DNA from: Mytilus galloprovincialis
Taxonomy: Eukaryota
DNA: 64,000 nt
Assembly: GCF_965363235.1 (NCBI RefSeq)
Contig: NC_134841.1
Location: 74,589,723 to 74,653,722 of the forward strand
Direction: 5' to 3'
Both the position numbers and the translations under genes were made by a program. Below the pieces are notes generated by a model, which was not told the DNA's origin, made no database searches, and saw only the letters and a list, made by a program, of their open reading frames with translations. Positions 6,368-63,460 of this stretch are shown piece by piece. The stretch's first letter is position 1; the number at the start of each line of letters is the position of its first letter.

Positions 6368-6384
6368 TATAAAATGTATACTTA

Positions 6385-25100: not shown

Positions 25101-28100
25101 GGAACTTTGCCGTAGGGATATGTCGAGGAGTACCGAATGTGTGGTTGATATGGAAAATACGTAAATGGGCATTTTGAAGCTCTGTGGTGGCCAGACGGGC
25201 CCGGATCCCAGAAAAATATTTAAGTGGCAAATAGCTTGGATCAATACCTTTGAAATGAGCTAGGTCCGGTTCGGAACTTTGCCGTAGGGATATGTCGAGG
25301 AGTACCGAATGTGTGGTTGATATGGAAAATACGTAAATTGGCAACTTTGAACCTCTGTGGTGGCCAGACGGGCCCGGATCCCAGAAAAATATTTAAGTGG
25401 GGAATAGCTTGGGTCAATACCTTTAAAATGAGCTAGGTCCGGTTCGGAACTTTGCCGTTGGTATATGCCGAAAAGTACCGAATGTATGCATATAGTTAAT
25501 ACGGAAAATTACGTTATGGGGCACCTTTGAACCTCTGTGGTGGCCAGACGGGCCCGGATCCCAGAAACATATTTAAGTGGCAAATAGCTTGGATCAATAC
25601 CTTTGAAATGAGCTAGGTCCGGTTCGGAACTTTGCCGTAGGGATATGTCGAGGAGTACCGAATGTGTGGTTGATATGGAAAATACGTAAATGGGCATTTT
25701 GAAGCTCTGTGGTGGCCAGACGGGCCCGGATCCCAGAAAAATATTTAAGTGGCAAATAGCTTGGATCAATACCTTTGAAATGAGCTAGGTCCGGTTCGGA
25801 ACTTTGCCGTAGGGATATGTCGAGGAGTACCGAATGTGTGGTTGATATGGAAAATACGTAAATTGGCAACTTTGAACCTCTGTGGTGGCCAGACGGGCCC
25901 GGATCCCAGAAAAATATTTAAGTGGGGAATAGCTTGGGTCAATACCTTTAAAATGAGCTAGGTCCGGTTCGGAACTTTGCCGTTGGTATATGCCGAAAAG
26001 TACCGAATGTATGCATATGGTTAATACGGAAAATTACGTTATGGGGCACCTTTGAACCTCTGTGGTGGCCAGACGGGCCCGGATCCCAGAAACATATTTA
26101 AGTGGCAAATAGCTTGGATCAATACCTTTGAAATGAGCTAGGTCCGGTTCGGAACTTTGCCGTAGGGATATGTCGAGGAGTACCGAATGTGTGGTTGATA
26201 TGGAAAATACGTAAATGGGCATTTTGAAGCTCTGTGGTGGCCAGACGGGCCCGGATCCCAGAAAAATATTTAAGTGGCAAATAGCTTGGATCAATACCTT
26301 TGAAATGAGCTAGGTCCGGTTCGGAACTTTGCCGTAGGGATATGTCGAGGAGTACCGAATGTGTGGTTGATATGGAAAATACGTAAATTGGCAACTTTGA
26401 ACCTCTGTGGTGGCCAGACGGGCCCGGATCCCAGAAAAATATTTAAGTGGGGAATAGCTTGGGTCAATACCTTTAAAATGAGCTAGGTCCGGTTCGGAAC
26501 TTTGCCGTTGGTATATGCCGAAAAGTACCGAATGTATGCATATGGTTAATACGGAAAATTACGTTATGGGGCACCTTTGAACCTCTGTGGTGGCCAGACG
26601 GGCCCGGATCCCAGAAACATATTTAAGTGGCAAATAGCTTGGATCAATACCTTTGAAATGAGCTAGGTCCGGTTCGGAACTTTGCCGTAGGGATATGTCG
26701 AGGAGTACCGAATGTGTGGTTGATATGGAAAATACGTAAATGGGCATTTTGAAGCTCTGTGGTGGCCAGACGGGCCCGGATCCCAGAAAAATATTTAAGT
26801 GGCAAATAGCTTGGATCAATACCTTTGAAATGAGCTAGGTCCGGTTCGGAACTTTGCCGTAGGGATATGTCGAGGAGTACCGAATGTGTGGTTGATATGG
26901 AAAATACGTAAATTGGCAACTTTGAACCTCTGTGGTGGCCAGACGGGCCCGGATCCCAGAAAAATATTTAAGTGGGGAATAGCTTGGGTCAATACCTTTA
27001 AAATGAGCTAGGTCCGGTTCGGAACTTTGCCGTTGGTATATGCCGAAAAGTACCGAATGTATGCATATGGTTAATACGGAAAATTACGTTATGGGGCACC
27101 TTTGAACCTCTGTGGTGGCCAGACGGGCCCGGATCCCAGAAACATATTTAAGTGGCAAATAGCTTGGATCAATACCTTTGAAATGAGCTAGGTCCGGTTC
27201 GGAACTTTGCCGTAGGGATATGTCGAGGAGTACCGAATGTGTGGTTGATATGGAAAATACGTAAATGGGCATTTTGAAGCTCTGTGGTGGCCAGACGGGC
27301 CCGGATCCCAGAAAAATATTTAAGTGGCAAATAGCTTGGATCAATACCTTTGAAATGAGCTAGGTCCGGTTCGGAACTTTGCCGTAGGGATATGTCGAGG
27401 AGTACCGAATGTGTGGTTGATATGGAAAATACGTAAATTGGCAACTTTGAACCTCTGTGGTGGCCAGACGGGCCCGGATCCCAGAAAAATATTTAAGTGG
27501 GGAATAGCTTGGGTCAATACCTTTAAAATGAGCTAGGTCCGGTTCGGAACTTTGCCGTTGGTATATGCCGAAAAGTACCGAATGTATGCATATGGTTAAT
27601 ACGGAAAATTACGTTATGGGGCACCTTTGAACCTCTGTGGTGGCCAGACGGGCCCGGATCCCAGAAACATATTTAAGTGGCAAATAGCTTGGATCAATAC
27701 CTTTGAAATGAGCTAGGTCCGGTTCGGAACTTTGCCGTAGGGATATGTCGAGGAGTACCGAATGTGTGGTTGATATGGAAAATACGTAAATGGGCATTTT
27801 GAAGCTCTGTGGTGGCCAGACGGGCCCGGATCCCAGAAAAATATTTAAGTGGCAAATAGCTTGGATCAATACCTTTGAAATGAGCTAGGTCCGGTTCGGA
27901 ACTTTGCCGTAGGGATATGTCGAGGAGTACCGAATGTGTGGTTGATATGGAAAATACGTAAATTGGCAACTTTGAACCTCTGTGGTGGCCAGACGGGCCC
28001 GGATCCCAGAAAAATATTTAAGTGGGGAATAGCTTGGGTCAATACCTTTAAAATGAGCTAGGTCCGGTTCGGAACTTTGCCGTTGGTATATGCCGAAAAG

Positions 28101-28700
28101 TACCGAATGTATGCATATGGTTAATACGGAAAATTACGTTAAGGGGCACCTTTGAACCTCTGTGTTGGCCAGACGGGCCCGGATCCCAGAAAAATATTTC
28201 AGTGGGGAATAGCTTGGGTCAATACCTTTAAAATGAGATAGGTCCGGTTTGGAACTTTGGCGTTGGTATATGCCGAAAAGTACCGAATGTGTGGTTAATA
28301 CGGAAATTGACGTTAAGGGGCACCCTTGAACCTCTGTGGTGGCCAGACGGTCCCGGATCCCAGAAAATATTTAAGTTGGTAATAGCCTTGGTCAGTACCT
28401 TTTAAAATCAGCCAGGTCCGGTTCGGAACTTTGCCGTAGGGATATGTCGAGGAATACCGAATGTATTGTTGATATAGAAAATACATGTACGTAAATGGAC
28501 AATTTTGAACCTCTGTGGTGGCCAGACAGTGCCGGTTCCCAGAAAAATTTTGAAGTGGCGAATAGCTCGGGTCAATACCTTTAAAATGAGATAGGTCAGG
28601 TTCGGAACTTTGCCGTAGAGATAAGCCTAGGATTTCCGAAAGCATGTGTGGTTAATATGAAAAGTACGTTAAGGCACACCTTTGAATCCCTATAATGGCC
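13095..28700 (-). repeat. Satellite array: 525-bp higher-order repeat (three ~175-bp monomer variants), ~30 HOR copies that are virtually identical; last ~600 bp (28100-28700) progressively degenerate
   Basis: The ORF track repeats with exact 525-nt spacing (13436, 13961, 14486 ... 27609). Monomers contain GGATCC, GGGCCC and TGGCCA sites. A single G/A variant (atatGgtt vs atatAgtt) recurs at spacings of 3-5 HORs. Confidence 0.92.
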
Positions 28701-31687
28701 AATATCTTTCATTAGTACAACACCTCCAAATATAGATAAATTAAATTGGCTTCTTATAATGCTAGTAAAAAAGAACACGAATATAAAGTGTATGGAACTT
28801 GTTTGGTAACCTTTTTTCATTGAAACAGGTTATATTTAAAGTAGGGGACGGACACAGTTTTAAACTTTAAATAAAAGAATGTTTAAAAAGGTGGACCGAG
28901 AAAAGTCTTAACTGGTGTCCCAAGTGTTAAACACTTAAGCCCAAAGGTATCGCATCAAGGATTTTACTGACGAAAAAGTACAAAGTTCTTTTTATGAACC
29001 TTAACTTAAAAGAAGGTTCAGGATTTGAACCGCATCGGTAAGGTCTGGCTAAAACAAAACAGGTGTGGGTGAAAGAGGTCTTTGTTCCATGAAAAGGGTA
29101 ACCTAAGTCCTTAAACTCTTGATTCAAACAATAAGATTTGCAGTACCAACCTTTTAGCAAGTATAGGCTTTGACAATTTGCCCAAGATTATAAAGGATAC
29201 TTTCGTTATGCGAGTATTAATGTGGTGAAGGCTTAAACATCTGGACTACGTCTTTACCAAATAATAAACCACTAACGGATTTTAATCTCCCACCAGCATG
29301 TTTTGATAGAATACACATCCTCAGACTCTCTAGATTTTCCTTGTTTTGGTCTTAAGCTTCTATTGACAACTAAAGTTTCAAGAGTTCATCAATGTTTTAT
29401 GTGTCGAGTTTTTAATCTGATTTACCTCGAGTTCTTGGTGCAGAGTGGTCTTAAACTCATCTACCTTTTTCTCGAGTTCTTTAATGACTGTATCATTATC
29501 CTTTCTCTAGTCGTTTTATATCTCTCTTTATCTGGTTACACGCGGATTGTAATTTTAATTCTAACGGTTTCGTATAGTGTTTCAATTGACGCATGACTCG
29601 TCGTTTTATTGCAGCATCCGTATTATTATTCTAAGATTTAATGTTAGTGATAGGATTGTTGTTCATGTTCAATTCTTCAAGCAATTGACTCCTATTTATT
29701 TCTCAATTTCCATAAAGTCCAAATTTGTCTGTCTTGGAAACGCAACTTCATCAAGGTTTTCCTTCAGACAACAATTGTGACAAATACAAACAAAAGTGTC
29801 CACAGACCACTGGTGCTCTTATCTGAAGTTCATCGGTGATGTAGTAGATCTTAAGTTTCAAGTAATTTACCATTACGTAAGGGGGGATTAAAGTCCGTAA
29901 GAATCAAAATACGCTTTGCTTGTTGTCGTCTTAAACTAACACGTCCAATGGGTTCCAGGTCTCATAATGGAAGAGTTAAAAGGTCATCAAACACGTCTTG
30001 CAATCGTTAAATGTAATGTTCTGTCAATTGACTTGTTTCTTCGTTCCTTTAGCTTTCCTGGTGTGTTGACCATCACCCATTCGATATTAACACATCTTGT
30101 AAGAATCCATACAAAGTTAGCCATCATTTGACCACCACATGCATACCAATCATTTTTTATTTTGTTGACGTTGGTCGGAATTCGAAAACGGGTTGTCCAT
30201 ACAATAGTTTGATGTGTCAATCTTGTTTTGAATGTGAGATATGTCTTTTTAAAAGTCGTCGGTTTAAATTTAATAGGCTTAACTATCGGTGTCGGTAAAC
30301 AATTGTCGAACTTTGTTCCCGTTGGTTTACGCACAAAGTCCAAATGAATGTCGTACATTTAAAATCTTTGAAATGTCTAAGATAATTGCTCCTTAGTACA
30401 CAGGCTTGTTAAACTTTAGTTTGGTTTTCTTTATGTTTACTACTACCATGGACTCGTTATACACCACGAATTGGTCACAGTTGGGTGTAGCTATTAGTTT
30501 CAACGGTTGCTTATCAGTAGTCATTAATATTATATTCACCCGTTAACGTGTGTTTTCCATGGTATTTTCAAACATTGAGTTGTTTATCAGTTTAAAGGAA
30601 TACTTTTCAGATACGATGCTGGCTATGATTCTAAGGTTAGTGTTCAGGTCAATGAAAATTTTAAGCCAAATTGATTGTTAAATTTTTGACACACGATGCA
30701 CTTTGGTTAATACCAACCATTGGAAACAACACTATTTCAAATTTCTAAAAAAAAAAAAATAGTAAACACATGTAGTACATGAACATAGTCAGCCACACTA
30801 ATGTGTTTATTATTAAGTCGGTCAGCAGATAGTAGTTGTGTTTTCGTCTTGTCGTAATGACCCTTCATGAAATCGTAAGATAAACATTTTATTTTTAATT
30901 ATTTATCATAAATTCATTATTCTACCTAAATCACGACTTTCATACCTTAAATTGGTTCAACTTTAAATTCTAAGCTAAATATATAAGGTGTCGGACGAAT
31001 TTAACATAAACTTACAGGAATCAATGAAAAGCATTTCTTACCGGTAATTGACAGTCTAAGTTACATTTTTTTATGTACTGCACCACGATACTTACTTGTC
31101 GAACGCTCGTGATCACGCACTTTGTCTTCACCTAATTCATCATCGCACATGTGACAATATTAACTCGCTGTAAAACATTGGGATCTTCTTCAGTCATCAC
31201 CAGGTCTTTTATCAATGTAGATGTTTGCAATCGCCTTCATTATCTCTTCCATACAAGCCACAAATCTCTGAACAATGTCTTCCAGTGAGTACACTTTTGT
31301 TTCTTTATATTCCCTATGAGCATACTGGACACGGTAGTAAAACCAGAAGGTGTATTTTGTTAGTTAACATCCGTGTAAGCTTTTAGTTTGTCAGGTTGGC
31401 AAGTGTCTATCTGTTCTGAGCTACATTGAATGTCAGCATAAATAACATAAGGAAATCGCATTTTACGTTGGTACTATGTTGTAAGATATTGTAATGGTAT
31501 CTTCTTCTGGAATTTCGATTTTCACTCCATTCATCTTATCACAATACATTAAATGTTCGTCTAAAAAGTCCTCACTTTAACAATGATTGAAACATCTTCG
31601 ACAAAAACACTTTACCATTGTGGGATGACACTTGGGGACTTAACAAATGTGATAATAGTTATCAAAGTACCAGGATTATAATTTTGT

Positions 31688-31733
31688 ACGCCAGACGCGC
31701 GTTTCGTCTACATAAGACTCATCAGTGACGCTC
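31688..31733 (-). ncRNA. Hammerhead ribozyme, minimal type-I topology (copy 1)
   Basis: Minus strand: GAGCGUCA-CUGAUGA-GUC-UUAUGUA-GAC-GAAAC-GCGC-GUC|UGGCGU. Conserved CUGAUGA and GAAA cores are present. Stem II is GUC/GAC. Short helix III is AC/GU. GUC cleavage triplet. Helix I is GCGUCA with UGGCGU (6 bp including 2 G-U pairs). Confidence 0.6.
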
Positions 31734-32039
31734 AGATCAAAATATTTATAAAGCCAAACAAGTACAAAGTTGAAGAGCATTTAGGATCCAAAATTCCAAA
31801 AAGTTGTGCCAAATACGGCTAAGGTAATCTATTCCTGGGATAAGAAAATCCTTAGTTTTTCGAAAAATTCAGTTTTGTAAACGGGAAATTTATAAAAATG
31901 ACCACAATATTGATATTCATGTCAACACCAAAGTGTTGACTACTGGGCTGGTAATACCCGCGGGGACGAAACGTCCACCAGCAGTGGCATCGACCCAGTG
32001 GTGTATATAGTTATCAAAGTACCAGGATTATAATTTTGT

Positions 32040-32085
32040 ACGCCAGACGAGCGTTTCGTCTACTTAAGACTCATCAGTGACGCTC
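32040..32085 (-). ncRNA. Hammerhead ribozyme (copy 2; stem II loop UUAAGUA, helix III loop GCUC)
   Basis: Same core as copy 1, 352 nt away. Compensatory or neutral changes are confined to loops. Confidence 0.55.
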
Positions 32086-32391
32086 ATATCAAAATATTTA
32101 TAAAGCCAAACAAGTACAAAGTTGAAGAGCATTTAGGATCCAAAATTCCAAAAAGTTGTGCCAAATACGGCTAAGGTAATCTATTCCTGGGATAAGAAAA
32201 TCCTTAGTTTTTCGAAAAATTCAGTTTTGTAAACGGGAAATTTATAAAAATGAACACAATATTGATATTCATGTCAACACCGAAGTGTTGACTACTGGGC
32301 TGGTAATACCCTCGGGGACGAAACATCCACCAGCAGTGGCATCGACCCAGTGGTGTAAATAGTTATCAAAGTACCAGGATTATAATTTTGT

Positions 32392-32437
32392 ACGCCAGAC
32401 GCGCGTTTCGTCTACATAAGACTCATCAGTGACGCTC
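32392..32437 (-). ncRNA. Hammerhead ribozyme (copy 3, identical to copy 1)
   Basis: gccagacgcgcgtttcgtctacataagactcatcagtgacgctc on the plus strand is the reverse complement of the ribozyme. Confidence 0.55.
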
Positions 32438-34269
32438 ATATCAAAATATTTATAAAGCCAAACAAGTACAAACTTTTTATCCAACAGTAATGATGTTTAG
32501 TAGCATTGGTTAAATACAACGTGTTTGTGTGAGTTCTATTCTTTTTGATGTTTTTTGAATTTTTAACGGGTACTTTTTTGTATTTTTTGTATTGACTCAC
32601 TCGTAAAATGTACTTTTCTGATCCACCTATTCATGATGTGATTGTGAGAATACAGCTCACGTTAATAATGGCCTTCTTCTGTGCTAGTTTTACTGAAAGG
32701 CGTAGGTAAGACTCAAACATCAGGGATACAATTTATTCATATGAAGGTGTACTTCTACAATATGACTAACGTTCACTCACTTCCATCACGCATGCAAGTT
32801 GCTATGCTTTCTTTTGCCTTTTCTATCATTACTGTTAGTTCAGTGTCTTAGTTGGTTGATTCAGTAATACTAACTTGCCATGCTTGAGTTGACCTTAAAA
32901 GTGGAATCACTGTCACCTGTTGCAAGGTTTTTTTTACCAACTGTACTAGAAGCACCTTCGATGCCTACTTTAAGTTGTCTTCTGAAATTTTACGAATCAA
33001 ATGTATGTAAAGCACTTCGACTTGCCTTAAAAATGAATTAACAAATGGTTCAATAAACACTGTAGTTCTTTTCTACCATCTTTCATCTTAATAACAGGTT
33101 TCTTAGCTATGTCTTGTTGCAGTCCTTTTTCCTTTTTCTTGATCTATATGTAAGGTATACCACGTTTCTTTGCTTTTAGTATTAATTCATTTTTAGTGAA
33201 CACTTCTGTATTGGGTAACACTTGATGCGTGTTGTCTTCAATAAGCTTTACCAACACGTCTTTTGGGTTTATACTATATCCTTTTAACCCCAAATCCTTT
33301 GCCATTCGATGTAATTAGTTTACCGTTATTTGTAAATGACCCGCTGGTATTGTCTTTATAAACCTAGCGCAACCTCTTTATTATGTATAGCATGTATATT
33401 AACTCACAATCTAGGCGTACCCGGTATGTTTTTGTTTGTTAATGCCATTGTTTATTTAATACTTACACACATGTGTCTTTTATGATTATTTTTTTTTTTC
33501 AATTTTACACCCCTAACCACCACTTGTAATTTTTTTAATCTAATGTTTACTAGATGTGAAAAGAAAAATAATGACACGTACTACTACGCGGTTTTCTGTC
33601 TAATAAGGGTATAGGCAGTCGTACTTCTGATGAACGGTCTTTCCAACGTTCTTGTTTCGTAATACAACCCACTACAAGCCCACACCTTACTTGTTACCCG
33701 TTTTATTGACTTCAAGATTAGTAGGTAAGTATCACAAATTATTTCATCCCCACTTGTAGTGTCAATAATTTGGTTCACCTCACTTGTTGGCAGGTCCTTC
33801 CATTTTTGTTTTTCTTTTGTGTCAAAGGTATTCAGATCAATAAAATAATATTGATTATAAGATGCCTTCATAATCCTAATACTTATAAAAATATTCCTAT
33901 ATTCTGGTTTTTTTTTTCATTTTAAAAAACACCACCCCGTACTCCTATTCAAATTCTAACCCTAACACCCCTTACCCTAACACACCTTACTCTAAAACCT
34001 TAAACACCTTTTAAATCAGACTATAACTTTTACACCATGATGCTTATTTACCTGTATAATGTTACGTCATAACTTTTACTTACTAATATGACGTCACTTT
34101 TTTCACTGTCACCTTCCTACTTTCACGTTCACTGTTAATTACTAAAATTGAAAGTGTTGCAGCATTCTCTATTCTACACCACTGGTATGAACCCAGGCTA
34201 TTCACTACTTTTTTTATATAATCCAGAGCCATCTGCATTACAGTGGTTCCGAAATTCATATAACGTATT

Positions 34270-37214: not shown

Positions 37215-40200
37215 CTTTACGGTAATTTTCGAACCTTTCCAAGCTCATTTCAAAGGTATTGACCCAAGCTATTCCCCACTTAAATATTTTTCTGGGATCC
37301 GGGCCCGTCTGGCCACCACAGAGGTTCAAAGTTGCCAATTTACGTATTTTCCATATCAACCACACATTCGGTACTCCTCGACATATCCCTACGGCAAAGT
37401 TCCGAACCGGACCTAGCTCATTTCAAAGGTATTGATCCAAGCTATTTGCCAGTTAAATATTTTTCTGGGATCCGGGCCCGTCTGGCCACCACAGAGGTTC
37501 AAAGTTGCCCATTTACGTATTTTCCATATCAACAACACATTCGGTACTCCTCGACATATCCCTACGGCAAAGTTCCGAACCGGACCTAGCTCATTTTAAA
37601 GGCATTGACCCAAGCTATTCCCACTTAAATATTTTTCTGGGATCCGGGCCCGTCTGGCCACCACAGAGGTTCAAAGGTGCCCCTTAACGTAATTTTCCGT
37701 ATTAACCATATGCATACATTCGGTACTTTTCGGCATATACCAACGGCAAAGTTCCGAACCGGACCTAGCTCATTTTAAAGGTATTGACCCAAGCTATTCC
37801 CCACTTAAATATTTTTCTGGGATCCGGGCCCGTCTGGCCACCACAGAGGTTCAAAGTTGCCAATTTACGTATTTTCCATATCAACCACACATTCGGTACT
37901 CCTCGACATATCCCTACGGCAAAGTTCCGAACCGGACCTAGCTCATTTCAAAGGTATTGATCCAAGCTATTTGCCAGTTAAATATTTTTCTGGGATCCGG
38001 GCCCGTCTGGCCACCACAGAGGTTCAAAGTTGCCCATTTACGTATTTTCCATATCAACAACACATTCGGTACTCCTCGACATATCCCTACGGCAAAGTTC
38101 CGAACCGGACCTAGCTCATTTTAAAGGCATTGACCCAAGCTATTCCCCACTTAAATATTTTTCTGGGATCCGGGCCCGTCTGGCCACCACAGAGGTTCAA
38201 AGGTGCCCCTTAACGTAATTTTCCGTATTAACCATATGCATACATTCGGTACTTTTCGGCATATACCAACGGCAAAGTTCCGAACCGGACCTAGCTCATT
38301 TTAAAGGTATTGACCCAAGCTATTCCCCACTTAAATATTTTTCTGGGATCCGGGCCCGTCTGGCCACCACAGAGGTTCAAAGTTGCCAATTTACGTATTT
38401 TCCATATCAACCACACATTCGGTACTCCTCGACATATCCCTACGGCAAAGTTCCGAACCGGACCTAGCTCATTTCAAAGGTATTGATCCAAGCTATTTGC
38501 CAGTTAAATATTTTTCTGGGATCCGGGCCCGTCTGGCCACCACAGAGGTTCAAAGTTGCCCATTTACGTATTTTCCATATCAACAACACATTCGGTACTC
38601 CTCGACATATCCCTACGGCAAAGTTCCGAACCGGACCTAGCTCATTTTAAAGGCATTGACCCAAGCTATTCCCCACTTAAATATTTTTCTGGGATCCGGG
38701 ACCGTCTGGCCACCACAGAGGTTCAAAGGTGCCCCTTAACGTAATTTTCCGTATTAACCATATGCATACATTCGGTACTTTTCGGCATATACCAACGGCA
38801 AAGTTCCGAACCGGACCTAGCTCATTTTAAAGGTATTGACCCAAGCTATTCCCCACTTAAATATTTTTCTGGGATCCGGGCCCGTCTGGCCACCACAGAG
38901 GTTCAAAGTTGCCAATTTACGTATTTTCCATATCAACCACACATTCGGTACTCCTCGACATATCCCTACGGCAAAGTTCCGAACCGGACCTAGCTCATTT
39001 CAAAGGTATTGATCCAAGCTATTTGCCAGTTAAATATTTTTCTGGGATCCGGGCCCGTCTGGCCACCACAGAGGTTCAAAGTTGCCCATTTACGTATTTT
39101 CCATATCAACAACACATTCGGTACTCCTCGACATATCCCTACGGCAAAGTTCCGAACCGGACCTAGCTCATTTTAAAGGCATTGACCCAAGCTATTCCCC
39201 ACTTAAATATTTTTCTGGGATCCGGGCCCGTCTGGCCACCACAGAGGTTCAAAGGTGCCCCTTAACGTAATTTTCCGTATTAACCATATGCATACATTCG
39301 GTACTTTTCGGCATATACCAACGGCAAAGTTCCGAACCGGACCTAGCTCATTTTAAAGGTATTGACCCAAGCTATTCCCCACTTAAATATTTTTCTGGGA
39401 TCCGGGCCCGTCTGGCCACCACAGAGGTTCAAAGTTGCCAATTTACGTATTTTCCATATCAACCACACATTCGGTACTCCTCGACATATCCCTACGGCAA
39501 AGTTCCGAACCGGACCTAGCTCATTTCAAAGGTATTGATCCAAGCTATTTGCCAGTTAAATATTTTTCTGGGATCCGGGCCCGTCTGGCCACCACAGAGG
39601 TTCAAAGTTGCCCATTTACGTATTTTCCATATCAACAACACATTCGGTACTCCTCGACATATCCCTACGGCAAAGTTCCGAACCGGACCTAGCTCATTTT
39701 AAAGGCATTGACCCAAGCTATTCCCCACTTAAATATTTTTCTGGGATCCGGGCCCGTCTGGCCACCACAGAGGTTCAAAGGTGCCCCTTAACGTAATTTT
39801 CCGTATTAACCATATGCATACATTCGGTACTTTTCGGCATATACCAACGGCAAAGTTCCGAACCGGACCTAGCTCATTTTAAAGGTATTGACCCAAGCTA
39901 TTCCCCACTTAAATATTTTTCTGGGATCCGGGCCCGTCTGGCCACCACAGAGGTTCAAAGTTGCCAATTTACGTATTTTCCATATCAACCACACATTCGG
40001 TACTCCTCGACATATCCCTACGGCAAAGTTCCGAACCGGACCTAGCTCATTTCAAAGGTATTGATCCAAGCTATTTGCCAGTTAAATATTTTTCTGGGAT
40101 CCGGGCCCGTCTGGCCACCACAGAGGTTCAAAGTTGCCCATTTACGTATTTTCCATATCAACAACACATTCGGTACTCCTCGACATATCCCTACGGCAAA

Positions 40201-43200
40201 GTTCCGAACCGGACCTAGCTCATTTTAAAGGCATTGACCCAAGCTATTCCCCACTTAAATATTTTTCTGGGATCCGGGCCCGTCTGGCCACCACAGAGGT
40301 TCAAAGGTGCCCCTTAACGTAATTTTCCGTATTAACCATATGCATACATTCGGTACTTTTCGGCATATACCAACGGCAAAGTTCCGAACCGGACCTAGCT
40401 CATTTTAAAGGTATTGACCCAAGCTATTCCCCACTTAAATATTTTTCTGGGATCCGGGCCCGTCTGGCCACCACAGAGGTTCAAAGTTGCCAATTTACGT
40501 ATTTTCCATATCAACCACACATTCGGTACTCCTCGACATATCCCTACGGCAAAGTTCCGAACCGGACCTAGCTCATTTCAAAGGTATTGATCCAAGCTAT
40601 TTGCCAGTTAAATATTTTTCTGGGATCCGGGCCCGTCTGGCCACCACAGAGGTTCAAAGTTGCCCATTTACGTATTTTCCATATCAACAACACATTCGGT
40701 ACTCCTCGACATATCCCTACGGCAAAGTTCCGAACCGGACCTAGCTCATTTTAAAGGCATTGACCCAAGCTATTCCCCACTTAAATATTTTTCTGGGATC
40801 CGGGCCCGTCTGGCCACCACAGAGGTTCAAAGGTGCCCCTTAACGTAATTTTCCGTATTAACCATATGCATACATTCGGTACTTTTCGGCATATACCAAC
40901 GGCAAAGTTCCGAACCGGACCTAGCTCATTTTAAAGGTATTGACCCAAGCTATTCCCCACTTAAATATTTTTCTGGGATCCGGGCCCGTCTGGCCACCAC
41001 AGAGGTTCAAAGTTGCAAATTTACGTATTTTCCATATCAACCACACATTCGGTACTCCTCGACATATCCCTACGGCAAAGTTCCGAACCGGACCTAGCTC
41101 ATTTCAAAGGTATTGATCCAAGCTATTTGCCAGTTAAATATTTTTCTGGGATCCGGGCCCGTCTGGCCACCACAGAGGTTCAAAGTTGCCCATTTACGTA
41201 TTTTCCATATCAACAACACATTCGGTACTCCTCGACATATCCCTACGGCAAAGTTCCGAACCGGACCTAGCTCATTTTAAAGGCATTGACCCAAGCTATT
41301 CCCCACTTAAATATTTTTCTGGGATCCGGGACTGTCTGGCCACCACAGAGGTTCAAAGGTGCCCCTTAACGTAATTTTCCGTATTAACCATATGCATACA
41401 TTCGGTACTTTTCGGCATATACCAACGGCAAAGTTCCGAACCGGACCTAGCTCATTTTAAAGGTATTGACCCAAGCTATTCCCCACTTAAATATTTTTCT
41501 GGGATCCGGGCCCGTCTGGCCACCACAGAGGTTCAAAGTTGCCAATTTACGTATTTTCCATATCAACCACACATTCGGTACTCCTCGACATATCCCTACG
41601 GCAAAGTTCCGAACCGGACCTAGCTCATTTCAAAGGTATTGATCCAAGCTATTTGCCAGTTAAATATTTTTCTGGGATCCGGGCCCGTCTGGCCACCACA
41701 GAGGTTCAAAGTTGCCCATTTACGTATTTTCCATATCAACAACACATTCGGTACTCCTCGACATATCCCTACGGCAAAGTTCCGAACCGGACCTAGCTCA
41801 TTTTAAAGGCATTGACCCAAGCTATTCCCCACTTAAATATTTTTCTGGGATCCGGGCCCGTCTGGCCACCACAGAGGTTCAAAGGTGCCCCTTAACGTAA
41901 TTTTCCGTATTAACCATATGCATACATTCGGTACTTTTCGGCATATACCAACGGCAAAGTTCCGAACCGGACCTAGCTCATTTTAAAGGTATTGACCCAA
42001 GCTATTCCCCACTTAAATATTTTTCTGGGATCCGGGCCCGTCTGGCCACCACAGAGGTTCAAAGTTGCCAATTTACGTATTTTCCATATCAACCACACAT
42101 TCGGTACTCCTCGACATATCCCTACGGCAAAGTTCCGAACCGGACCTAGCTCATTTCAAAGGTATTGATCCAAGCTATTTGCCAGTTAAATATTTTTCTG
42201 GGATCCGGGCCCGTCTGGCCACCACAGAGGTTCAAAGTTGCCCATTTACGTATTTTCCATATCAACAACACATTCGGTACTCCTCGACATATCCCTACGG
42301 CAAAGTTCCGAACCGGACCTAGCTCATTTTAAAGGCATTGACCCAAGCTATTCCCCACTTAAATATTTTTCTGGGATCCGGGCCCGTCTGGCCACCACAG
42401 AGGTTCAAAGGTGCCCCTTAACGTAATTTTCCGTATTAACCATATGCATACATTCGGTACTTTTCGGCATATACCAACGGCAAAGTTCCGAACCGGACCT
42501 AGCTCATTTTAAAGGTATTGACCCAAGCTATTCCCCACTTAAATATTTTTCTGGGATCCGGGCCCGTCTGGCCACCACAGAGGTTCAAAGTTGCCAATTT
42601 ACGTATTTTCCATATCAACCACACATTCGGTACTCCTCGACATATCCCTACGGCAAAGTTCCGAACCGGACCTAGCTCATTTCAAAGGTATTGATCCAAG
42701 CTATTTGCCAGTTAAATATTTTTCTGGGATCCGGGCCCGTCTGGCCACCACAGAGGTTCAAAGTTGCCCATTTACGTATTTTCCATATCAACAACACATT
42801 CGGTACTCCTCGACATATCCCTACGGCAAAGTTCCGAACCGGACCTAGCTCATTTTAAAGGCATTGACCCAAGCTATTCCCCACTTAAATATTTTTCTGG
42901 GATCCGGGCCCGTCTGGCCACCACAGAGGTTCAAAGGTGCCCCTTAACGTAATTTTCCGTATTAACCATATGCATACATTCGGTACTTTTCGGCATATAC
43001 CAACGGCAAAGTTCCGAACCGGACCTAGCTCATTTTAAAGGTATTGACCCAAGCTATTCCCCACTTAAATATTTTTCTGGGATCCGGGCCCGTCTGGCCA
43101 CCACAGAGGTTCAAAGTTGCAAATTTACGTATTTTCCATATCAACCACACATTCGGTACTCCTCGACATATCCCTACGGCAAAGTTCCGAACCGGACCTA

Positions 43201-44694
43201 GCTCATTTCAAAGGTATTGATCCAAGCTATTTGCCAGTTAAATATTTTTCTGGGATCCGGGCCCGTCTGGCCACCACAGAGGTTCAAAGTTGCCCATTTA
43301 CGTATTTTCCATATCAACAACACATTCGGTACTCCTCGACATATCCCTACGGCAAAGTTCCGAACCGGACCTAGCTCATTTTAAAGGCATTGACCCAAGC
43401 TATTCCCCACTTAAATATTTTTCTGGGATCCGGGACTGTCTGGCCACCACAGAGGTTCAAAGGTGCCCCTTAACGTAATTTTCCGTATTAACCATATGCA
43501 TACATTCGGTACTTTTCGGCATATACCAACGGCAAAGTTCCGAACCGGACCTAGCTCATTTTAAAGGTATTGACCCAAGCTATTCCCCACTTAAATATTT
43601 TTCTGGGATCCGGGCCCGTCTGGCCACCACAGAGGTTCAAAGTTGCCAATTTACGTATTTTCCATATCAACCACACATTCGGTACTCCTCGACATATCCC
43701 TACGGCAAAGTTCCGAACCGGACCTAGCTCATTTCAAAGGTATTGATCCAAGCTATTTGCCAGTTAAATATTTTTCTGGGATCCGGGCCCGTCTGGCCAC
43801 CACAGAGGTTCAAAGTTGCCCATTTACGTATTTTCCATATCAACAACACATTCGGTACTCCTCGACATATCCCTACGGCAAAGTTCCGAACCGGACCTAG
43901 CTCATTTTAAAGGCATTGACCCAAGCTATTCCCCACTTAAATATTTTTCTGGGATCCGGGCCCGTCTGGCCACCACAGAGGTTCAAAGGTGCCCCTTAAC
44001 GTAATTTTCCGTATTAACCATATGCATACATTCGGTACTTTTCGGCATATACCAACGGCAAAGTTCCGAACCGGACCTAGCTCATTTTAAAGGTATTGAC
44101 CCAAGCTATTCCCCACTTAAATATTTTTCTGGGATCCGGGCCCGTCTGGCCACCACAGAGGTTCAAAGTTGCCAATTTACGTATTTTCCATATCAACCAC
44201 ACATTCGGTACTCCTCGACATATCCCTACGGCAAAGTTCCGAACCGGACCTAGCTCATTTCAAAGGTATTGATCCAAGCTATTTGCCAGTTAAATATTTT
44301 TCTGGGATCCGGGCCCGTCTGGCCACCACAGAGGTTCAAAGTTGCCCATTTACGTATTTTCCATATCAACAACACATTCGGTACTCCTCGACATATCCCT
44401 ACGGCAAAGTTCCGAACCGGACCTAGCTCATTTTAAAGGCATTGACCCAAGCTATTCCCCACTTAAATATTTTTCTGGGATCCGGGCCCGTCTGGCCACC
44501 ACAGAGGTTCAAAGGTGCCCCTTAACGTAATTTTCCGTATTAACCATATGCATACATTCGGTACTTTTCGGCATATACCAACGGCAAAGTTCCGAACCGG
44601 ACCTAGCTCATTTTAAAGGTATTGACCCAAGCTATTCCCCACTTAAATATTTTTCTGGGATCCGGGCCCGTCTGGCCACCACAGAGGTCCAAAG
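37215..44694 (+). repeat. Satellite array: 526-bp higher-order repeat, ~14 copies, same 3-monomer HOR as the minus array; ends at the conserved flank junction
   Basis: ORF track spacing is 526 nt (37857, 38383, 38909 ...). Linked variants (gttgcAaattt plus gggacTgtc) recur at 41013/41186 and 43117/43290. That is a 2104-bp (4-HOR) super-repeat. Confidence 0.92.
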
Positions 44695-45333
44695 TCGTCT
44701 TAGGGTGGTCACCGTCATTTAAGCAGTCTCTGGTAGTTGTTCACTATTAATGTCTTTTCTTTTTTGGCTTTCCATAAGTATTTCTATGTATATTTCTATA
44801 TGTTTCTGGAGTAATTGGATTTTGTTTCATATTTTATATATTAAATTACATCTTTGGTGAATCCTCTGTAATGTTTTATTGATAAAAATCTATATAACAT
44901 AAAGACAAATATGCAACTTGTATCAGGGTTTATATTCGAGGACAACGAAAATTTATGACAGCTTGAAGAGGTCATAGAATGGTATTATTTCCCTCAGGCT
45001 TCATAGTGATAGTGATTGTCAACTAAATTTAAATATTGAACCGACGACTAGCAGTCGGTTGGATATTCAATATCAATTATCGAATGTCAAATAAAGGACA
45101 GACCGCTTACATACATATTTAAAACGGAATGAAATGCTTTAGAAATTAGCAGAAACCGTGAAATTGTCGATTTCCGCTGTTAGATTGCATTTAACTAAGA
45201 TTTAGCGATTTTTGGAACGTTTGAGCCTCACGCAGTTTTTTGGTTTTTAGACATATCGTCAAAATTGGCTGCTGGAAAAAAGTGGCTGCTATCTTGATTG
45301 GCCGATAAAAGTGGCTGCCAGCTTGAGTCTGGT
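44695..45333 (+). mobile_element. Satellite-flanking module, copy 3
   Basis: Near-identical to 4725-5355. Diverges from the other copies immediately after ...gcttgagtctggt. Confidence 0.6.
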
Positions 45334-46839: not shown

Positions 46840-47480
46840 TGTGATTAATCTGTGTTTTGTGGTATTAAGCATCGTTTATTAGTTTCATAACATTTTCTTG
46901 AGGAAAACTTAGTAAGAGAACAAAAACGAAAAATTCAATTTTTCCATTTGTAAAGGGGCCTAACTCTAGAACAGTAAAAATGAGGTCACCAAAATTCAAA
47001 CATAATCTATGTTTTGTGGTAATAAGCTTATAATGAGGGTTTGGATGGGATTAAATGATTAAAGAATAAGTCCCTTAAAAAATGAAGATTACAGAATAAT
47101 GGGCAAAAAAAAAATGAAGATTAGAGAAAAAAGGGGTTATTTTTTTGAAGATTAGAGAAAAAAGGGGTTAATTTTTTAAAGATTAGAAGAAAAAAGGGGT
47201 GAAAATTAAATGTTTACAGAATAACAGACCCCCCCCCCCATCCAGGCCCTCTATAATCATTGCATAATAATTTCATAATATTTAAATGAGGCAAACTAAA
47301 GTAAGAGAAATGAAACGAAAAATTCAGCATTTTTTTCCCATTTATAAAGGGACATAACTGTAGAATAGAAAAAAGTATGGCTTCCAAAGCTCTTAATACT
47401 TGATCTGTGTTTCGTATTAATAAGCATTGTGTTTAAGTTTCATAACATTTGTATGAGGCAAACTAAATTTAGAGAACGGA
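46840..47480. repeat. ~230-bp repeat, about 3 tandem/diverged copies; plus a short ~40-bp tandem (gaagattagagaaaaaaggggtta) at 47100-47200
   Basis: Shared blocks such as gtgttttgtggtaWtaagcat...gtttcataacattt...gaggMaaacttagtaagagaac...cgaaaaattca recur at about 46850, 47000 and 47290-47470. Confidence 0.6.
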
Positions 47481-56482: not shown

Positions 56483-58389
56483 TCAAAATTATAAGACTGA
56501 TGTCTTTGTTGACGTTGCAGGTGCGCTTGACTCCAATCTTAATTAAATAAGATAGTCAAGTTTTCAGACCGAAGGTTGGCGATTCTCTCCGACACTCCGT
56601 CTTCCTCCACTGATAAAACTGACGACCATGAAATAGCACAACTGTGCTGAAAGAAGCATTAAACACCAATCAATCAATCATAGAAATGATAATACTATTA
56701 TTTTTTTATTCATAATTTTTATAACAATAAGAAGCTTTATTTCTTTATTGAATATTTCATTAAAGAGACTTCGTAGGTTCTGGTTTCTAAGACAAATAAA
56801 AAATCTCAAATCATCATACAGTTTGCCTCAGGTTGAACTGTGACAAATTTGTTACACCCACACCCAGATAACACTTCCAATATCTGGTGTGGTGTTGAGA
56901 GAGCTGTAGCCATTGAAAATCAAGCACTGTTCAGTTTTAAAGACAAATGCTGTACAATCGGTTCCATGATGTAGACATAAGTAAGCACAGTAAATCCTTG
57001 TTCTGGAATACTCGGTTAGATAAGGAAGAGTAGTTGGGATGGAATCTGTCTTGTCAATATGAAAATACCTCGAACCTGTTAAATATTAAAAATACCATAT
57101 ATAGGTGGATAATGTAGTAAATATTTCTATCGGAAAACAACTGTAGTTCATACAAAATATAAACTCTCTTCACAAATGTTTTTTTTTCTTTCTATGTATT
57201 CCCCTTCTTTATTAAACTTATAGTGAACATAAAAATAATTAATCATCTAAAAATATTCTAAATATATTCTATAGTGACTATTAATTATATAAACCAATAA
57301 TTTAACAAATTCAAAAGGAAAAGATGCAAAATAAAACATATAACAACAAGAATGTGTCCCCAGTACACGAATGCCCCACTCGCACTATCATTTTCTATGT
57401 TCAGTGGACCGTGAAATTGGGGTAAAATCTCTAATTTGGCATTAAAATTAAAAAGATCATATCATAGGGAACATGTATACTAAGTTTGAAGTCGATTGGA
57501 CTTCAACTTCATCAAAAACTACCTTGACCAAAAACTTTAACCTGAAGCGGGACAGACGGACGGACGAACGAACGAACGAACGAACGAACGGACGGACGGA
57601 CGGACAGACGACCGACCGAACGAACGGACACACAGACCAGAAAACATAATGCCCCTCTACTATCGTAGGTGGGGCATAAAAATATCCACAATCTTGTTGA
57701 CTCCTTGTTTTGTCATCTCTTTATTTTTTCCTCCGGTGGAATGTTAAGGTTGTATGTTATTTTACTTACTGTTTGTACCCCCAACATGCCATTGGCCAAT
57801 ATTTCCCGTCGGTGTGCTTACTCCTGCTGTTAAACCTTCAACTATATCTTGGGATATGGGATAATGGTTCGCCGTTGGATCTATTTTAAGTAATTATATG
57901 TTTTATTATATGTGATGTATTATAATCGGATAGATATGATGAGAAAGGGTTAATTTTAATGAAGCAGTAGTCTTAACTAAATGGTTAAAACAATTTTTAT
58001 TTATCCCAACACACGGCCCCCACACTCACCTATATTCTTGCCTCCACAAAATGATCATATTACAAAGTTATCTAGTGTAGATTCTCGTTTTTCACATTTA
58101 TGGTAAAATGAGGAAACCCCATACATATTCGTACAAAAAAAGCACCCACACTCAAACATGAGAATATCAGTTTCATTGTTAATTTAGCTTTATCCATATG
58201 TAAACATAGAATATTCTCGCTTCTAAAATATTCAAAATTGAAACACTCGATAAGGTCGACGAAGGTTTTATCTACACACAAAAAAATCATATTTGTGACA
58301 ATAAGTACAGCTATACTATATTTATATTTTTTCTTTAAATTTCTTTTTTGAAACCATCATTTTGATATATCAAGAAAAAACATACATAC

Positions 58390-58598
58390 ATTGACAAAGA
58401 AATAGACTGGTTTCCGTCGCTGCTCTATTATCCCAATCAAAGCTTTTAGTGTAAACAAGTTTAACACGTTGGTTTATAGCATATGATGTAGGTTCTCCAT
58501 AAATCCATGCAGCTTCCGTTAGATCTGTTCCATCATTCCATTTGAATGAAATTCCATCTGCTGACGTCAGTCCAATCCAGAAATCGTTATTAACATTC
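58390..58598 (-). CDS. Multi-CTLD gene, exon e (C-terminal half of CTLD-C)
   Basis: Acceptor tgttacag|G at 58599/58598. Encodes (M)NVNNDFWIGLTSADGISFKWNDGTDLTEAAWIYGEPTSYAINQRVKLVYTKSFDWDNRAATETSLFLCQ then t|GTATGT donor. WIGL, W.W.DG and GEP signatures are present. Confidence 0.6.
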
Positions 58599-59890
58599 CT
58601 GTAACATATATAGAAATCGTTATTGTTGTCCCTGTAACATATTTAGAAATCGTTATTATTGTCCCTGTAACATTTTTAGAAATCGTTATTATTGTTCCTG
58701 TAATATATTTAGAAATTGTTAGGAATGTCCCTGTAACATGTTTAGAAATCGTTATTATTGTCCCTGTAACATATATAGAAATCGTTATTATTGTCCCTGC
58801 AACATATTTAGAAATCGTTATTATTGTCCCTGTAACATATTTAGAAATTGTTATTATTGTCCCTGTAACATATTTAGAAATCGTTATTATTTTCCCTTTA
58901 ACATATTTAGAAATCGTTATTATCGTCCCTGCAACTTATTTAGAAATCGTTATAATTGTCCCTGTAGCATATTCAGAAATCGTTATTATTGTCCCTGCAA
59001 CATATTTAGAAATCGTTATTATTGTCCCTGTAACATACTTAGAAATCGTTAGTATTGTCCCTGTAAAATATTTAGAAATCGTTATTATTGTCCCTGCAAC
59101 ATATTTAGAAATCGTTATTATTGTCCCTGTAACATATTTAGAAATCGTTATTATTGTCTCTGCAACATATTTAGAAATCGTTATTATTATCCCTGTAACA
59201 TACTTAGAAATCGTTATTATTGTCCCTGTAACATACTAAGAAATAGTTAGTATTGTCCCTGTTAAATATTTAGAAATCGTTATTATTGTCCCTGCAACAT
59301 ATTTAGAAATCGTTATTATTGTCCCTGTAACATACTTAGAAATCGTTATTATTGTCCCTGTAACATACTTAGAAATCGTTAGTAATGTCCCTGTCAAATA
59401 TTTAGAAATCGTTATTATTGTCCCTGCAACATATTTAGAAATCGTTAGTATTGTCCCTGTAACATATTTAGAAATCGTTGTTATTGTCCCTGCAACATAT
59501 TTAGAAATTTTTATTATTGTCCCTGTAACATATTTAGAAATCGTTACTATTGTCCTTGTAACATATTTAGAATCGTTATTATTGTCCCTGTAACATATTT
59601 AGAAATCGTTAAAATTGTCCTTGTAACATATTTAGAAATCGTTATTATTTTCCCTGTAACATATTTAGAATCATTATTATTGACCCTGTAACATATTTAG
59701 AAATCGTTATTATTGTCACTGTAACATATTTAGAAATCGTTATAATTGTCCATGTAACATATTCATAAATCGTTATTATTGTCCCTGTAACATATTTAGA
59801 AATCGTTATTATTGTCCCTGAAACATACTTAGAAATCGTTATTATTGTTCCTGAAACATACTTAGAAATCGTTATTATTGTTCCTGTAAC
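58581..59890. repeat. 33-bp minisatellite, ~40 copies, inside the intron between CTLD exons d and e; the unit is derived from the splice-acceptor and exon-start of exon e
   Basis: Plus-strand unit gaaatcgttattattgtccctgtaacatatttag. Minus-strand unit ..atgttacagGGACAATAATAACGATTTC.. matches the true junction atgttacag|GAATGTTAATAACGATTTCTGG. ORF 58738-59052 (NRYYCPCNIFR repeats) is just its translation. Confidence 0.85.
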
Positions 59891-60669
59891 ATATTTTCAA
59901 AGACCATTTCAACTGGCAAGCACTAAAAAGATAATCGTTATATAAAAAATAACCAGATTTGGTAGTCTTCTCGAAGTGCGAATTGAGTAATTTTAAATGA
60001 TTTCCGTTCAATTCCATTGTCACATCAGTAAATATCAGAAAGAAGAAGTGGTATAATTGTCAATGAGACAACTCTCCACAAGAGTCCAAATGACACAGAA
60101 ATTGGCAGCCCATAACGCACCTATAGTCAGATATAAATTTAAAAGGCCCCAAAATCACAAATGTAAAACAACTCAAATGGGAAAAATAGCCTGATTTATG
60201 TTCAAAAAATGAACGAAAAACAAATATTTTTATGTAACACAGCAACAAACCACAACTACTGAATTACAGGTTCCTGACTTGGGAGCAAGTACACAAGGAT
60301 TTAAGAATAGCAAGTAGAATTAGTTAGTCCAGTTACCCAGTTACTTATGTATATACTGAACAGTAGAATTAGTGATTATTTCTGCACTGAGGCAAAGAAG
60401 CAGCATATTGTCTCGAATATCATAATGTAAGGAGTGTATGCGTGCAATTTTTAAAAGTGTTTCGAAAGGATTTCCCCTTGGTAAGGAGTGTTTACTTACA
60501 ATTAAAGTGTAGAAATGGGAGAGAAATAATTGTTCTAATTCCCTTTGAGATATAATAAATTTTAGAAGAACAGTTTCGACATGTTTAAAAAAAAACCAGA
60601 TTAGCTTCTGTTACATTATCAAGTGTATCTAAAAAGGTAGATTCTGATTTCAGTATTTCTATTACTTAC

Positions 60670-60808
60670 ATTCCCTGGTAGACAATAGCATTCTTGGCAA
60701 CTGTAAACATTTCATTTGTGGGTAGCATGGCCAGCTCTAAGGCATTCATTTCACAATCCTGTTTAGCAGTTTGATAATCAACGGAGTAACTCATCGGCAT
60801 ATAATTAT
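60670..60808 (-). CDS. Multi-CTLD gene, exon d (N-terminal half of CTLD-C)
   Basis: Acceptor tctcttgtttctgaatgtag|AT. Encodes NYMPMSYSVDYQTAKQDCEMNALELAMLPTNEMFTVAKNAIVYQG then at|GTAAGT donor at 60669. Y..A...C and LA...S..E..F pattern. Confidence 0.5.
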
Positions 60809-61827: not shown

Positions 61828-62039
61828 ATTGACATAACGCGTGGGGCAGTCTGGTAGATTTAGTTTTTGACACCCATGTACCATCGACCTTGTCCACCGC
61901 TATAGAGACGTTTGCAACCGGATTGGGAACAGTGTGACCTGGTTTCCAGTCTGTATAAACCACACTTTCTAACATGTTTTGCCAGGTTAGATATGCTCCA
62001 TTGCCATATAAACCTATCCATATGTCACCAGTCAGAGTT
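61828..62039 (-). CDS. Multi-CTLD gene, exon c (C-terminal half of CTLD-B)
   Basis: Acceptor gtgttag|A. Encodes (E)TLTGDIWIGLYGNGAYLTWQNMLESVVYTDWKPGHTVPNPVANVSIAVDKVDGTWVSKTKSTRLPHALCQ then t|GTAAGT donor (61827-61822). Overlaps ORF 61808-62056. Confidence 0.6.
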
Positions 62040-62780: not shown

Positions 62781-62925
62781 TCATAAGTTATGAAATCTTT
62801 TAAAAACGTAACGGCAACTGGGTTAGAAAACACCGCTAATTGTCCACCTAAGTTAATACATTCCTGTGAGGCTTCGTAATAGTTGTAATCTCCATGGATA
62901 AATGTCACGTCTGGATGAGGAGGTG
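62781..62925 (-). CDS. Multi-CTLD gene, exon b (N-terminal half of CTLD-B)
   Basis: Acceptor gttttgcag|CA. Encodes PPHPDVTFIHGDYNYYEASQECINLGGQLAVFSNPVAVTFLKDFITY then ga|GTATGT donor. Phase joins exon c exactly (..ITY-E-TLTGDIWIGL..). Confidence 0.55.
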
Positions 62926-63262: not shown

Positions 63263-63460
63263 CCATAACATAGAGGGCGGTTAAGTTCCGTGTAGGCGCC
63301 CGTATTCCACAATACATAAGCATAGGCCTGGCTAAACTTTCCAAATTCCAATTGTGGTTCAAGGGCTGCCCATGAATCATAGTCCAATGTTTTGCCATCA
63401 TCCCAATAACAAAGTTGGTTTGTACAAGATACAGACATCCATACATCATCGACAATGCCC
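63263..63460 (-). CDS. Multi-CTLD gene, exon a (C-terminal half of CTLD-A; the N-terminal half presumably lies beyond 64000)
   Basis: Acceptor ttttttttaacag|G. Encodes GIVDDVWMSVSCTNQLCYWDDGKTLDYDSWAALEPQLEFGKFSQAYAYVLWNTGAYTELNRPLCY then g|GTGCAT donor. Overlaps ORF 63238-63489. Coordinates may be off by 1 (see summary). Confidence 0.5.

Follow-up and report, generated by a model that had tools for sequence, protein, structure and literature searches.

The window analysed here is a stretch of 64,000 nucleotides (nt) from the Mytilus galloprovincialis genome (NCBI RefSeq assembly GCF_965363235.1, contig NC_134841.1, positions 74,589,723 to 74,653,722 of the forward strand), and coordinates given without a contig name are counted from its first letter. 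On its minus strand it carries a gene with three C-type-lectin domains (CTLDs), and the intron that divides the third domain ends in a 33-bp tandem array which runs directly into the 3' splice site of the following exon. Seven exons of this gene, A to G, lie in the window with canonical AG/GT boundaries, while the N-terminal ~66 codons lie past the window end. Joined together, the seven exons form an uninterrupted open reading frame (ORF) of 411 codons that is 100% identical to M. galloprovincialis XP_076101033.1. The gene is laid out as follows, with a slash marking each splice junction.

63264..63460, minus strand: exon A, second half of CTLD 1, acceptor 19 nt before the W codon (ORF model)
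62781..62925, minus strand: exon B, first half of CTLD 2 (ORF model)
61828..62039, minus strand: exon C, second half of CTLD 2, acceptor 19 nt before the W of WIGL, without an array (ORF model)
60670..60808, minus strand: exon D, first half of CTLD 3, donor GGAAT/gtaagt, phase 2 (ORF model)
58599..60669, minus strand: intron D-E, 2,071 nt, of which the array is the 3'-most 1,298 nt (sequence and ORF model)
58599..58600, minus strand: AG of the authentic exon E 3' splice site, ttacag/G (100% identity to XP_076101033.1; five ortholog models)
58390..58598, minus strand: exon E, 209 nt, second half of CTLD 3 (..NNDFWIGLTSADG..EP..LFLCQ), donor CAAT/gtatgt (ORF model and Pfam)
57770..57880, minus strand: exon F, linker (ORF model)
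56852..57075, minus strand: exon G, Cys-rich C-terminal exon with the stop codon (ORF model; PAN_1 match below threshold)

The gene model of the window matches Pfam Lectin_C with 57.9 bits (cut-off 22.6). The full protein (P0007) matches it with 70.9 bits over three stretches, and the best of these, residues 261-366, is contiguous across the D/E junction. When 5.8 billion proteins were searched, 'lymphocyte antigen 75-like [Mytilus edulis]' was retrieved with 97% identity at 100% coverage, and orthologs outside the M. edulis complex and M. coruscus were not found. The 90% cluster of the protein has 7 members and includes models from M. edulis, M. galloprovincialis and M. trossulus. Identity to the other full-length proteins of these three species is 91-97%, and it is 87% to an 82-aa fragment (P0008). 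Five orthologous models extend as far as the D/E junction, and every one of them has ..AIVYQGM/(D/N)(V/N)NNDFWIGL.. across it. Since both these models and the Lectin_C match run through the junction, the authentic acceptor is ttacag/G at 58599/58598, used together with the exon D donor at 60670. The first-pass annotation, made from the DNA letters, had proposed a minus-strand C-type lectin gene with precisely this donor and an exon E acceptor reading atgttacag/, and the domain match, the RefSeq name and the identical protein model confirm it on each count.

Tandem Repeats Finder (TRF) places the array on the minus strand at 58579-59896, with 40.0 copies, 89% matches, 0% indels and a score of 2118, in agreement with the earlier estimate of about 40 copies of 33 bp at 58581-59890. 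When the 64-kb window was scanned with the consensus GGACAATAATAACGATTTCTAAATATGTTACAG, 35 units with at most three mismatches were found, all on the minus strand and all inside the array; the scan gave no match elsewhere in the window, and 100 dinucleotide-preserving shuffles gave 0 matches. Parsing by an edit-distance walk upstream from the junction yielded 39 full units plus a first acceptor. Read on the minus strand, the units end in ..atatgttacag/GGAC, and the array passes directly into ..tatatatgttacag/GAATGTTAATAACGATTTCTGGATTGG at 58599/58598; its final copy is the authentic junction. The parts of the array that matter for the argument are these.

58579..59896, minus strand: 33-bp minisatellite, 40.0 copies (TRF, unit matching, unit parsing)
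58579..58598, minus strand: terminal half-unit, the first 20 nt of exon E, GAATGTTAATAACGATTTCT (16/20 identity to the unit)
59884..59896, minus strand: first acceptor copy aaatatgttacag, the 5' edge of the duplicated segment (joins unique intron ..ggtctttga)
58599..58633, minus strand: last full unit (58599-58631) with a cryptic AG (58632-58633), the only upstream in-frame site
58738..59052, plus strand: artefactual ORF with FRNRYYCPCNI repeats, opened by the 3 x 11 periodicity

The first 20 nt of exon E, which code for N V N N D F, match the unit at 16 of 20 positions (chance P=1.6e-6). The corresponding match is 17/20 in M. edulis (P=1.3e-7) and 19/20 in M. trossulus (P=2.7e-10), all three probabilities being those of a fixed alignment. 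The likeness extends beyond a few bases, and the unit consists of an acceptor plus the start of its exon, as had first been described. It is lost from exon E position +21 onwards (GGATTGG vs AAATATG), and its upstream limit is 13 nt 5' of the first AG, where the unique intron gives way to the first acceptor copy. The unit therefore corresponds to intron positions -13..-1 plus exon positions +1..+20, and the locus has the structure U-[X]n-D, with X standing for this segment. The copy counts of 40.0, 22.0 and 37.0 found in the window and in other assemblies, with clean unique flanks, are whole numbers, as tandem duplication of a defined segment predicts.

The plus-strand ORF at 58738-59052 encodes 104 aa, and the two short ORFs within the array are artefacts of its periodicity. 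The search of 5.8 billion proteins, used as a proxy for the presence of the array in further assemblies or in transcript contigs, found no homologue of the 104-aa product, and the earlier dismissal of this ORF as a repeat artefact was sound. A coding tandem repeat (an exonic variable number of tandem repeats, VNTR) was also considered for the minus strand; it was ruled out by the in-frame TAA, which puts a stop in the way of 38 of the 39 upstream entry points.

The array was compared, with copies counted by TRF, between the window and five other assemblies or contigs, that is, in six sequences from five assemblies and three species. All five orthologous arrays lie at the same intron site as the window array:

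M. edulis GCA_963676685.2: 22.0 copies
M. edulis GCA_905397895.1: 37.5 copies
M. galloprovincialis GCA_900618805.1 (Lola), two contigs: 37.0 copies each, the arrays being identical
M. trossulus GCA_036588685.2: 12.7 copies, or 14 units upstream of the junction when parsed by hand; 78% matches

A unit-level alignment shows that unit-specific substitutions are common, in order, to M. galloprovincialis and M. edulis, and that the alleles differ by a few multi-unit indels. The prediction of length-polymorphic alleles is borne out by counts of 22, 37, 37.5 and 40 copies, with ~14 in M. trossulus. The array predates the split of M. trossulus, M. edulis and M. galloprovincialis, varies in length and is only moderately unstable. 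The M. trossulus array (L003 12911-13410) is shorter than the others and degenerate: CAT replaces the final CAG in seven units in a row, and 4-5 of its 14 upstream sites keep the AG. Its last unit has a perfect TACTAAC 20 nt before the real AG.

Two of the compared loci have peculiarities of their own. In M. edulis GCA_905397895.1 (L004 10529-10600) the authentic acceptor reads ttaaag/G, that is, AAG, and the exon has a 3-nt insertion that appears as MDVLNNDF in CAG2243796.1. Either the allele is real or the sequence is wrong at the edge of the repeat. In M. galloprovincialis GCA_900618805.1 two contigs (L005 4749-5970 and L006 9791-11012) carry the gene with identical 37-unit arrays, and both protein models are truncated. 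The two contigs probably represent either haplotigs left uncollapsed in the assembly or a duplication of very recent date.

Satellites and other repeats abound in the window, and one could suppose that a dispersed or transposon-borne satellite happens to abut exon E, or that the array is an error of assembly. The presence of the array in several assemblies, with common unit-specific variants, shows that it is real and not an assembly artefact. The recurrence of these variants in six sequences, five assemblies and three species is equally hard to reconcile with a chance neighbour of the exon, and the unit includes 20 nt of coding sequence. Outside the orthologous array the unit is absent from the window and from ~116 kb of fetched Mytilus loci (six loci), and looking for the exact unit in metagenome contigs produced 0 hits. 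Within the sequences covered, such an origin is very unlikely.

The direction of copying can be addressed by comparing the three lectin domains of the same protein. The second half of each CTLD has its own exon, A, C or E, and all three of these exons start in phase 2 and 19 nt before the W codon of W(I/M)G/WIGL, and exons A and C have no repeat upstream. As the three domains have this intron position and phase in common, and two of them are without an array, the intron position is older than the array. Exon E of M. trossulus opens with GGACAATAATAACGATTT (DNNNDF), which is the unit consensus (19/20 in the comparison above). The comparison thus supports an array copied from the junction, as had been proposed at the outset, and not an exon start captured from an earlier repeat. 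The reverse order, in which an intronic minisatellite came first and exon E took its start from the last unit by exonisation or gene conversion, would account for the unit-like exon start, and the M. trossulus start could likewise be explained by conversion from array to exon. Against this order stand the intron site, phase and 19-nt distance found in all three domains, two of them without an array, as well as the whole number of units and the fact that the array stops exactly at exon +20. The terminal unit may occasionally have undergone conversion with its neighbours, and this fits copying from the junction too. We consider the reverse order highly improbable. Under an origin from the junction, the state expected before duplication is a single-copy ..ttacag/GGACAATAATAACGATTTCTGG in an outgroup. 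In the M. coruscus locus (L002, P0002), from the sole hit in that species, neither exons D-G nor the 33-bp unit were found: homology to the window reaches the intron after exon C and no further, and is followed by other repeats and the contig end.

Each unit of the array carries the elements of a complete 3' splice site: a branch-point-like AAUAAC (UACUAAC in some units), then a U-rich stretch GAUUUCU..UGUU, then CAG/G. The motif ATAAC, with a branch-type A 21 nt upstream of the AG, is present in 30 of 39 units, and a perfect TACTAAC in four. Because only 13 nt of intron were duplicated, the 20 nt that precede the last 13 nt of each acceptor are derived from the exon, and this is true of the authentic site too. 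Acceptor strength is described here by composition and not by a splice-site score; the pyrimidine content between -20 and -4 is 0.59 for the real exon E acceptor and 0.47 to 0.71 for the other acceptors of the gene. According to the classical rule, the first AG after the branch point is used. Every AG has another AG 33 nt upstream of it, and under this rule the branch point of the real site must therefore lie in the last unit. With the branch point confined to the unit, selection of an acceptor becomes selection of a unit. For the choice of 3' splice sites, a scanning mechanism is widely accepted (PMC1557585).

The 40 sites in the acceptor register, authentic site included, comprise 37 with AG and 36 with YAG (Y, pyrimidine), which agrees with the roughly 40 cryptic acceptors that had been announced, one of them being the real one. 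In the edulis/galloprovincialis arrays the two AG positions have 0 and 2 changes in 37 units, against a mean of ~2 per position. With variation at or below the mean, nothing in these arrays suggests that selection has either kept or removed the cryptic AGs. Seven units (1, 2, 16, 17, 20, 21 and 26; for example 59325-59357) carry an A-to-G variant that creates TAA/GTATGT, the donor hexamer of two real donors of the gene. It is conceivable from these motifs that such a unit, together with its own acceptor, could form a 22-nt poison micro-exon containing a stop. RNA structure that might mask the cryptic sites was looked for and rejected: the array RNA shows no unusual structure, its minimum free energy being -31.7 kcal/mol where shuffled sequences have a mean of -34.3 (z = +0.79).

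With the frame taken from exon D (..GGA AT/G), 38 of the 39 upstream entry points reach an in-frame stop, 31 of those at the eighth codon, a typical unit being translated as MDNNNDF followed by TAA. The sole site without a stop is the one at -33 (AG 58632-58633). It is open because the last unit reads TAT instead of TAA, and its use would add 11 aa, DNNNDFYICYR, in frame. The window, the M. edulis RefSeq sequence and the two Lola contigs of M. galloprovincialis have the site open; in M. edulis GCA_905397895 it is closed, and M. trossulus lacks it.

It may then be asked whether the -33 acceptor is a genuine alternative site, so that one isoform would carry 11 additional residues immediately ahead of the WIGL strand in CTLD 3. 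It has the form CAG/G, is preceded by the usual module, and is in frame and open in the four sequences just named. A protein with the DNNNDFYICYR insertion was, however, found neither in the 7-member 90% cluster nor among the search hits, and the TAT variant occurs in interior unit 34 as well, so it is not peculiar to the last position. The state of the site in the second M. edulis assembly and in M. trossulus speaks against a maintained isoform, and an unpaired Cys before a core beta-strand would probably harm the fold. We regard such an isoform as quite unlikely.

The explanation that we favour, with a probability of roughly 0.7, is that the array is a minisatellite of the 'mirage' type, derived from the 3' junction of exon E, and most likely a splicing-silent by-product without function. 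A 33-bp segment across this junction (13 nt of intron and 20 nt of exon) would have been duplicated in tandem, and slippage or unequal exchange would then have amplified it to 14-40 copies. Because the upstream copies carry the in-frame TAA, the gene is intact only if the exon-adjacent copy acts as the acceptor and the rest of the array is treated as intron. In all annotated orthologs the exon-proximal acceptor is the one used, on the basis of annotation, and the protein search and the 90% cluster yielded no isoform with sequence derived from the array. This unit would prevail as the only one with true exon sequence 3' of it, from +21 on, and we infer that exon definition would also favour it, since it gives the shortest exon (209 nt) before the strong donor CAAT/gtatgt. 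Any leakage into upstream units would produce premature-stop transcripts, to be removed by nonsense-mediated decay (NMD); the earlier prediction of NMD is in principle correct, in that a premature stop is expected from 38 of 39 upstream sites. On this view the array would have arisen through errors of replication or recombination; it would be tolerated, turn over slowly and have been inherited from before the split of the three species.

Several points weigh against this explanation. The case for the exon-proximal acceptor comes from annotation pipelines, and these tend to select the site that preserves the ORF. The cryptic sites at -33, -66 and -99 have the same 33 nt upstream as the real site and ~16-19 of 20 nt in common downstream. 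Exon definition alone does not obviously exclude these nearest decoys, because the exons they would create are only 242-308 nt long. The -33 unit is stopless in 3 of 4 edulis/galloprovincialis alleles, which could hint at occasional use of this site. The loss of AGs in M. trossulus could reflect selection against cryptic acceptors, and hence a cost of the array, or alternatively it could be the simple spread of one variant. Finally, there is no array-free outgroup among the loci compared, and the M. coruscus contig gives no pre-duplication state.

A functional role for the upstream copies can be imagined as well. The array might be a bank of unproductive acceptors which, together with the TAA/GTATGT poison micro-exons, would send a copy-number-dependent share of transcripts to NMD and so tune the output of an immune lectin. 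The ingredients are there: 36 upstream AGs (35 of them YAG), each with a branch-point-like motif, a premature stop behind 38 of 39 upstream sites, seven units with the consensus-like donor GTATGT whose hexamer recurs in two real donors, alleles that span 22 to 40 copies, and an array kept in three species. Against this, the AG positions are conserved no more than other unit positions. M. trossulus has lost most of its AGs and its gene is still intact, and a neutral intronic repeat can be expected to persist over a few million years anyway. The counterparts of the array in amphioxus and in the human F7 gene, described below, are moreover reported to be splicing-silent. We therefore consider this role unlikely, and the more specific notion that allele length between 22 and 40 units sets the expression of the lectin through NMD, suggested by the same sequence features, very unlikely. 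If it were true, the attenuator would act in a genus known for extreme lectin gene variability.

The closest precedents for a non-functional array are the 'mirage' minisatellites, first described at amphioxus Adh3 (Canestro et al. 2002, Nucleic Acids Res 30:2871, as cited in PMC3087553). Somatic instability and units of 10-72 bp are reported for the Adh3 mirage. Further amphioxus mirages occur in the globin genes BflGb6 and BflGb9 (PMC3087553) and in troponin C and PGBD5 (PMC3902484). They duplicate splice sites and are unstable in length, and reverse-transcription PCR showed that regular splicing is undisturbed though many copies keep their AG/GT (PMC3087553, PMC3902484). In BflGb6 the unit consists of an intron's 3' end together with the following exon's 5' portion, the haplotypes have 6 vs 3 copies, and the units at the edges escape homogenisation (PMC3087553).

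The Mytilus array has all the sequence-level features of a mirage: head-to-tail units of minisatellite size, a unit that spans the boundary, a terminal copy that is the junction, a copied splice signal and variation in length. As in amphioxus, splice signals are multiplied, length varies between alleles, the edge units diverge from those in the interior and the authentic site is the one used, according to gene models in Mytilus and to transcripts in amphioxus. As in BflGb6, it is the acceptor side that has been duplicated. The differences concern the host, a bivalve mollusc instead of a cephalochordate, the copy number, 22-40 against 3-6 in BflGb6, and the unit length, 33 bp against 150-160 bp in the amphioxus globins, a value within the 10-72 bp range of Adh3. 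The Mytilus array also persists with position-specific variants over three species. For amphioxus, normal splicing and somatic instability have been shown experimentally.

A second precedent is found in human F7, where intron 7 (IVS7) contains a 37-bp VNTR of polymorphic copy number, the first unit of which lies across the exon 7/IVS7 boundary (Borensztajn et al. 2006, PLoS Genet, PMC1557585). The 5-9 identical donor sites of this VNTR are functional, but the pseudo-sites are silent and only the exon-adjacent site is used; minigene data exist for F7 (PMC1557585). The unit length is similar (37 vs 33 bp), copy number is polymorphic in both, and in both a terminal unit that spans the boundary holds the authentic junction beside near-identical pseudo-sites, with the exon-adjacent copy being used (in Mytilus, by annotation). 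F7, however, multiplies the 5' splice site, in 5-9 copies downstream of the exon, while the Mytilus array multiplies the 3' splice site, with 37 AGs upstream of the exon. The rule derived for F7, by which 5'-to-3' scanning selects the most upstream donor, is not directly transferable, because Mytilus needs the most downstream acceptor.

Tandem duplications of 3' splice sites are otherwise familiar from experiments with artificial two-copy constructs, which are interpreted by a model of scanning from the branch point to the first AG, and in which exon sequence and proximity decide the copy that is used. The Mytilus array poses the same question of which acceptor is chosen, in the form of a natural array of 40 copies in an invertebrate. 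Our literature search, whose coverage is incomplete, returned no reports of boundary-spanning arrays in molluscs or outside amphioxus, apart from the donor-side counterpart in F7. Since the amphioxus and F7 precedents are reported to be splicing-silent, both the novelty of the case and the prior for an effect on splicing are lowered. The effects on splicing put forward in the first-pass annotation are possible, but precedent argues against them.

The array extends mirages from lancelets to a mollusc, and its copy number is by far the highest among the described examples that we found. It is at the same time stable enough for a unit-by-unit comparison over three species. This makes it a natural test case, in which ~37 near-identical branch-point/AG modules follow one another and a functional protein results from the last alone, much as the F7 array served for donor selection. 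For mussel genomics it calls for caution, as gene predictors and short-read aligners can easily misplace the junction, and in one deposited M. edulis model an AAG already serves as the acceptor, together with a 3-nt insertion. Should the array prove silent, which is what we expect, it would be an instructive curiosity and not a discovery.

The window and the related loci contain further repeats. A satellite of 172/173 bp, with a 353-bp dimer as its higher-order period and ~89-90% matches, occupies 13098-28686 (plus strand), 37242-44695 (inverted) and 4051-4724. Its two large blocks, of 15.6 kb and 7.5 kb, are in opposite orientation and ~8.5 kb apart, and together with the 3.9-copy remnant they make up ~37% of the window. 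The GC content of the satellite is 0.46, against ~0.34 elsewhere in the window, and its unit contains GGGCCC (ApaI). We presume that it resembles the Mytilus ApaI satellite, for which a literature search gave no confirmation. Between and beside the satellite blocks lie further tandem repeats, at 31654-32472 (352 bp x 2.3, 97%), 6384-6567 (47 bp x 3.9, 95%) and 47115-47200 (31 bp x 2.7). A (GGAC)n microsatellite of 20 copies is found in intron F-G at 57550-57629, beside sequence that resembles an inserted repeat element. The longest ORF of the window, at 10313-11269 on the minus strand (318 aa), has only sub-threshold Pfam matches of the coiled-coil type (Apolipoprotein 22 bits, Stathmin 19 bits).

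On the M. coruscus contig (L002, CACVKT020008819.1, 14417-26251) the model P0002 does not stop at the exon C donor; it continues into the intron and is fused to unrelated sequence. Past the point in this intron where homology to the window ends lie complex 21/42/63-bp arrays (15290-16136), and an inverted copy occupies 25336-25813, close to where the contig stops. The M. edulis ortholog (L001) is followed downstream by two 21/43/64-bp arrays (TATGTCGTTCCCTCAAGATAT), at 22235-22598 and 23843-24400, inverted with respect to each other and ~1.2 kb apart.

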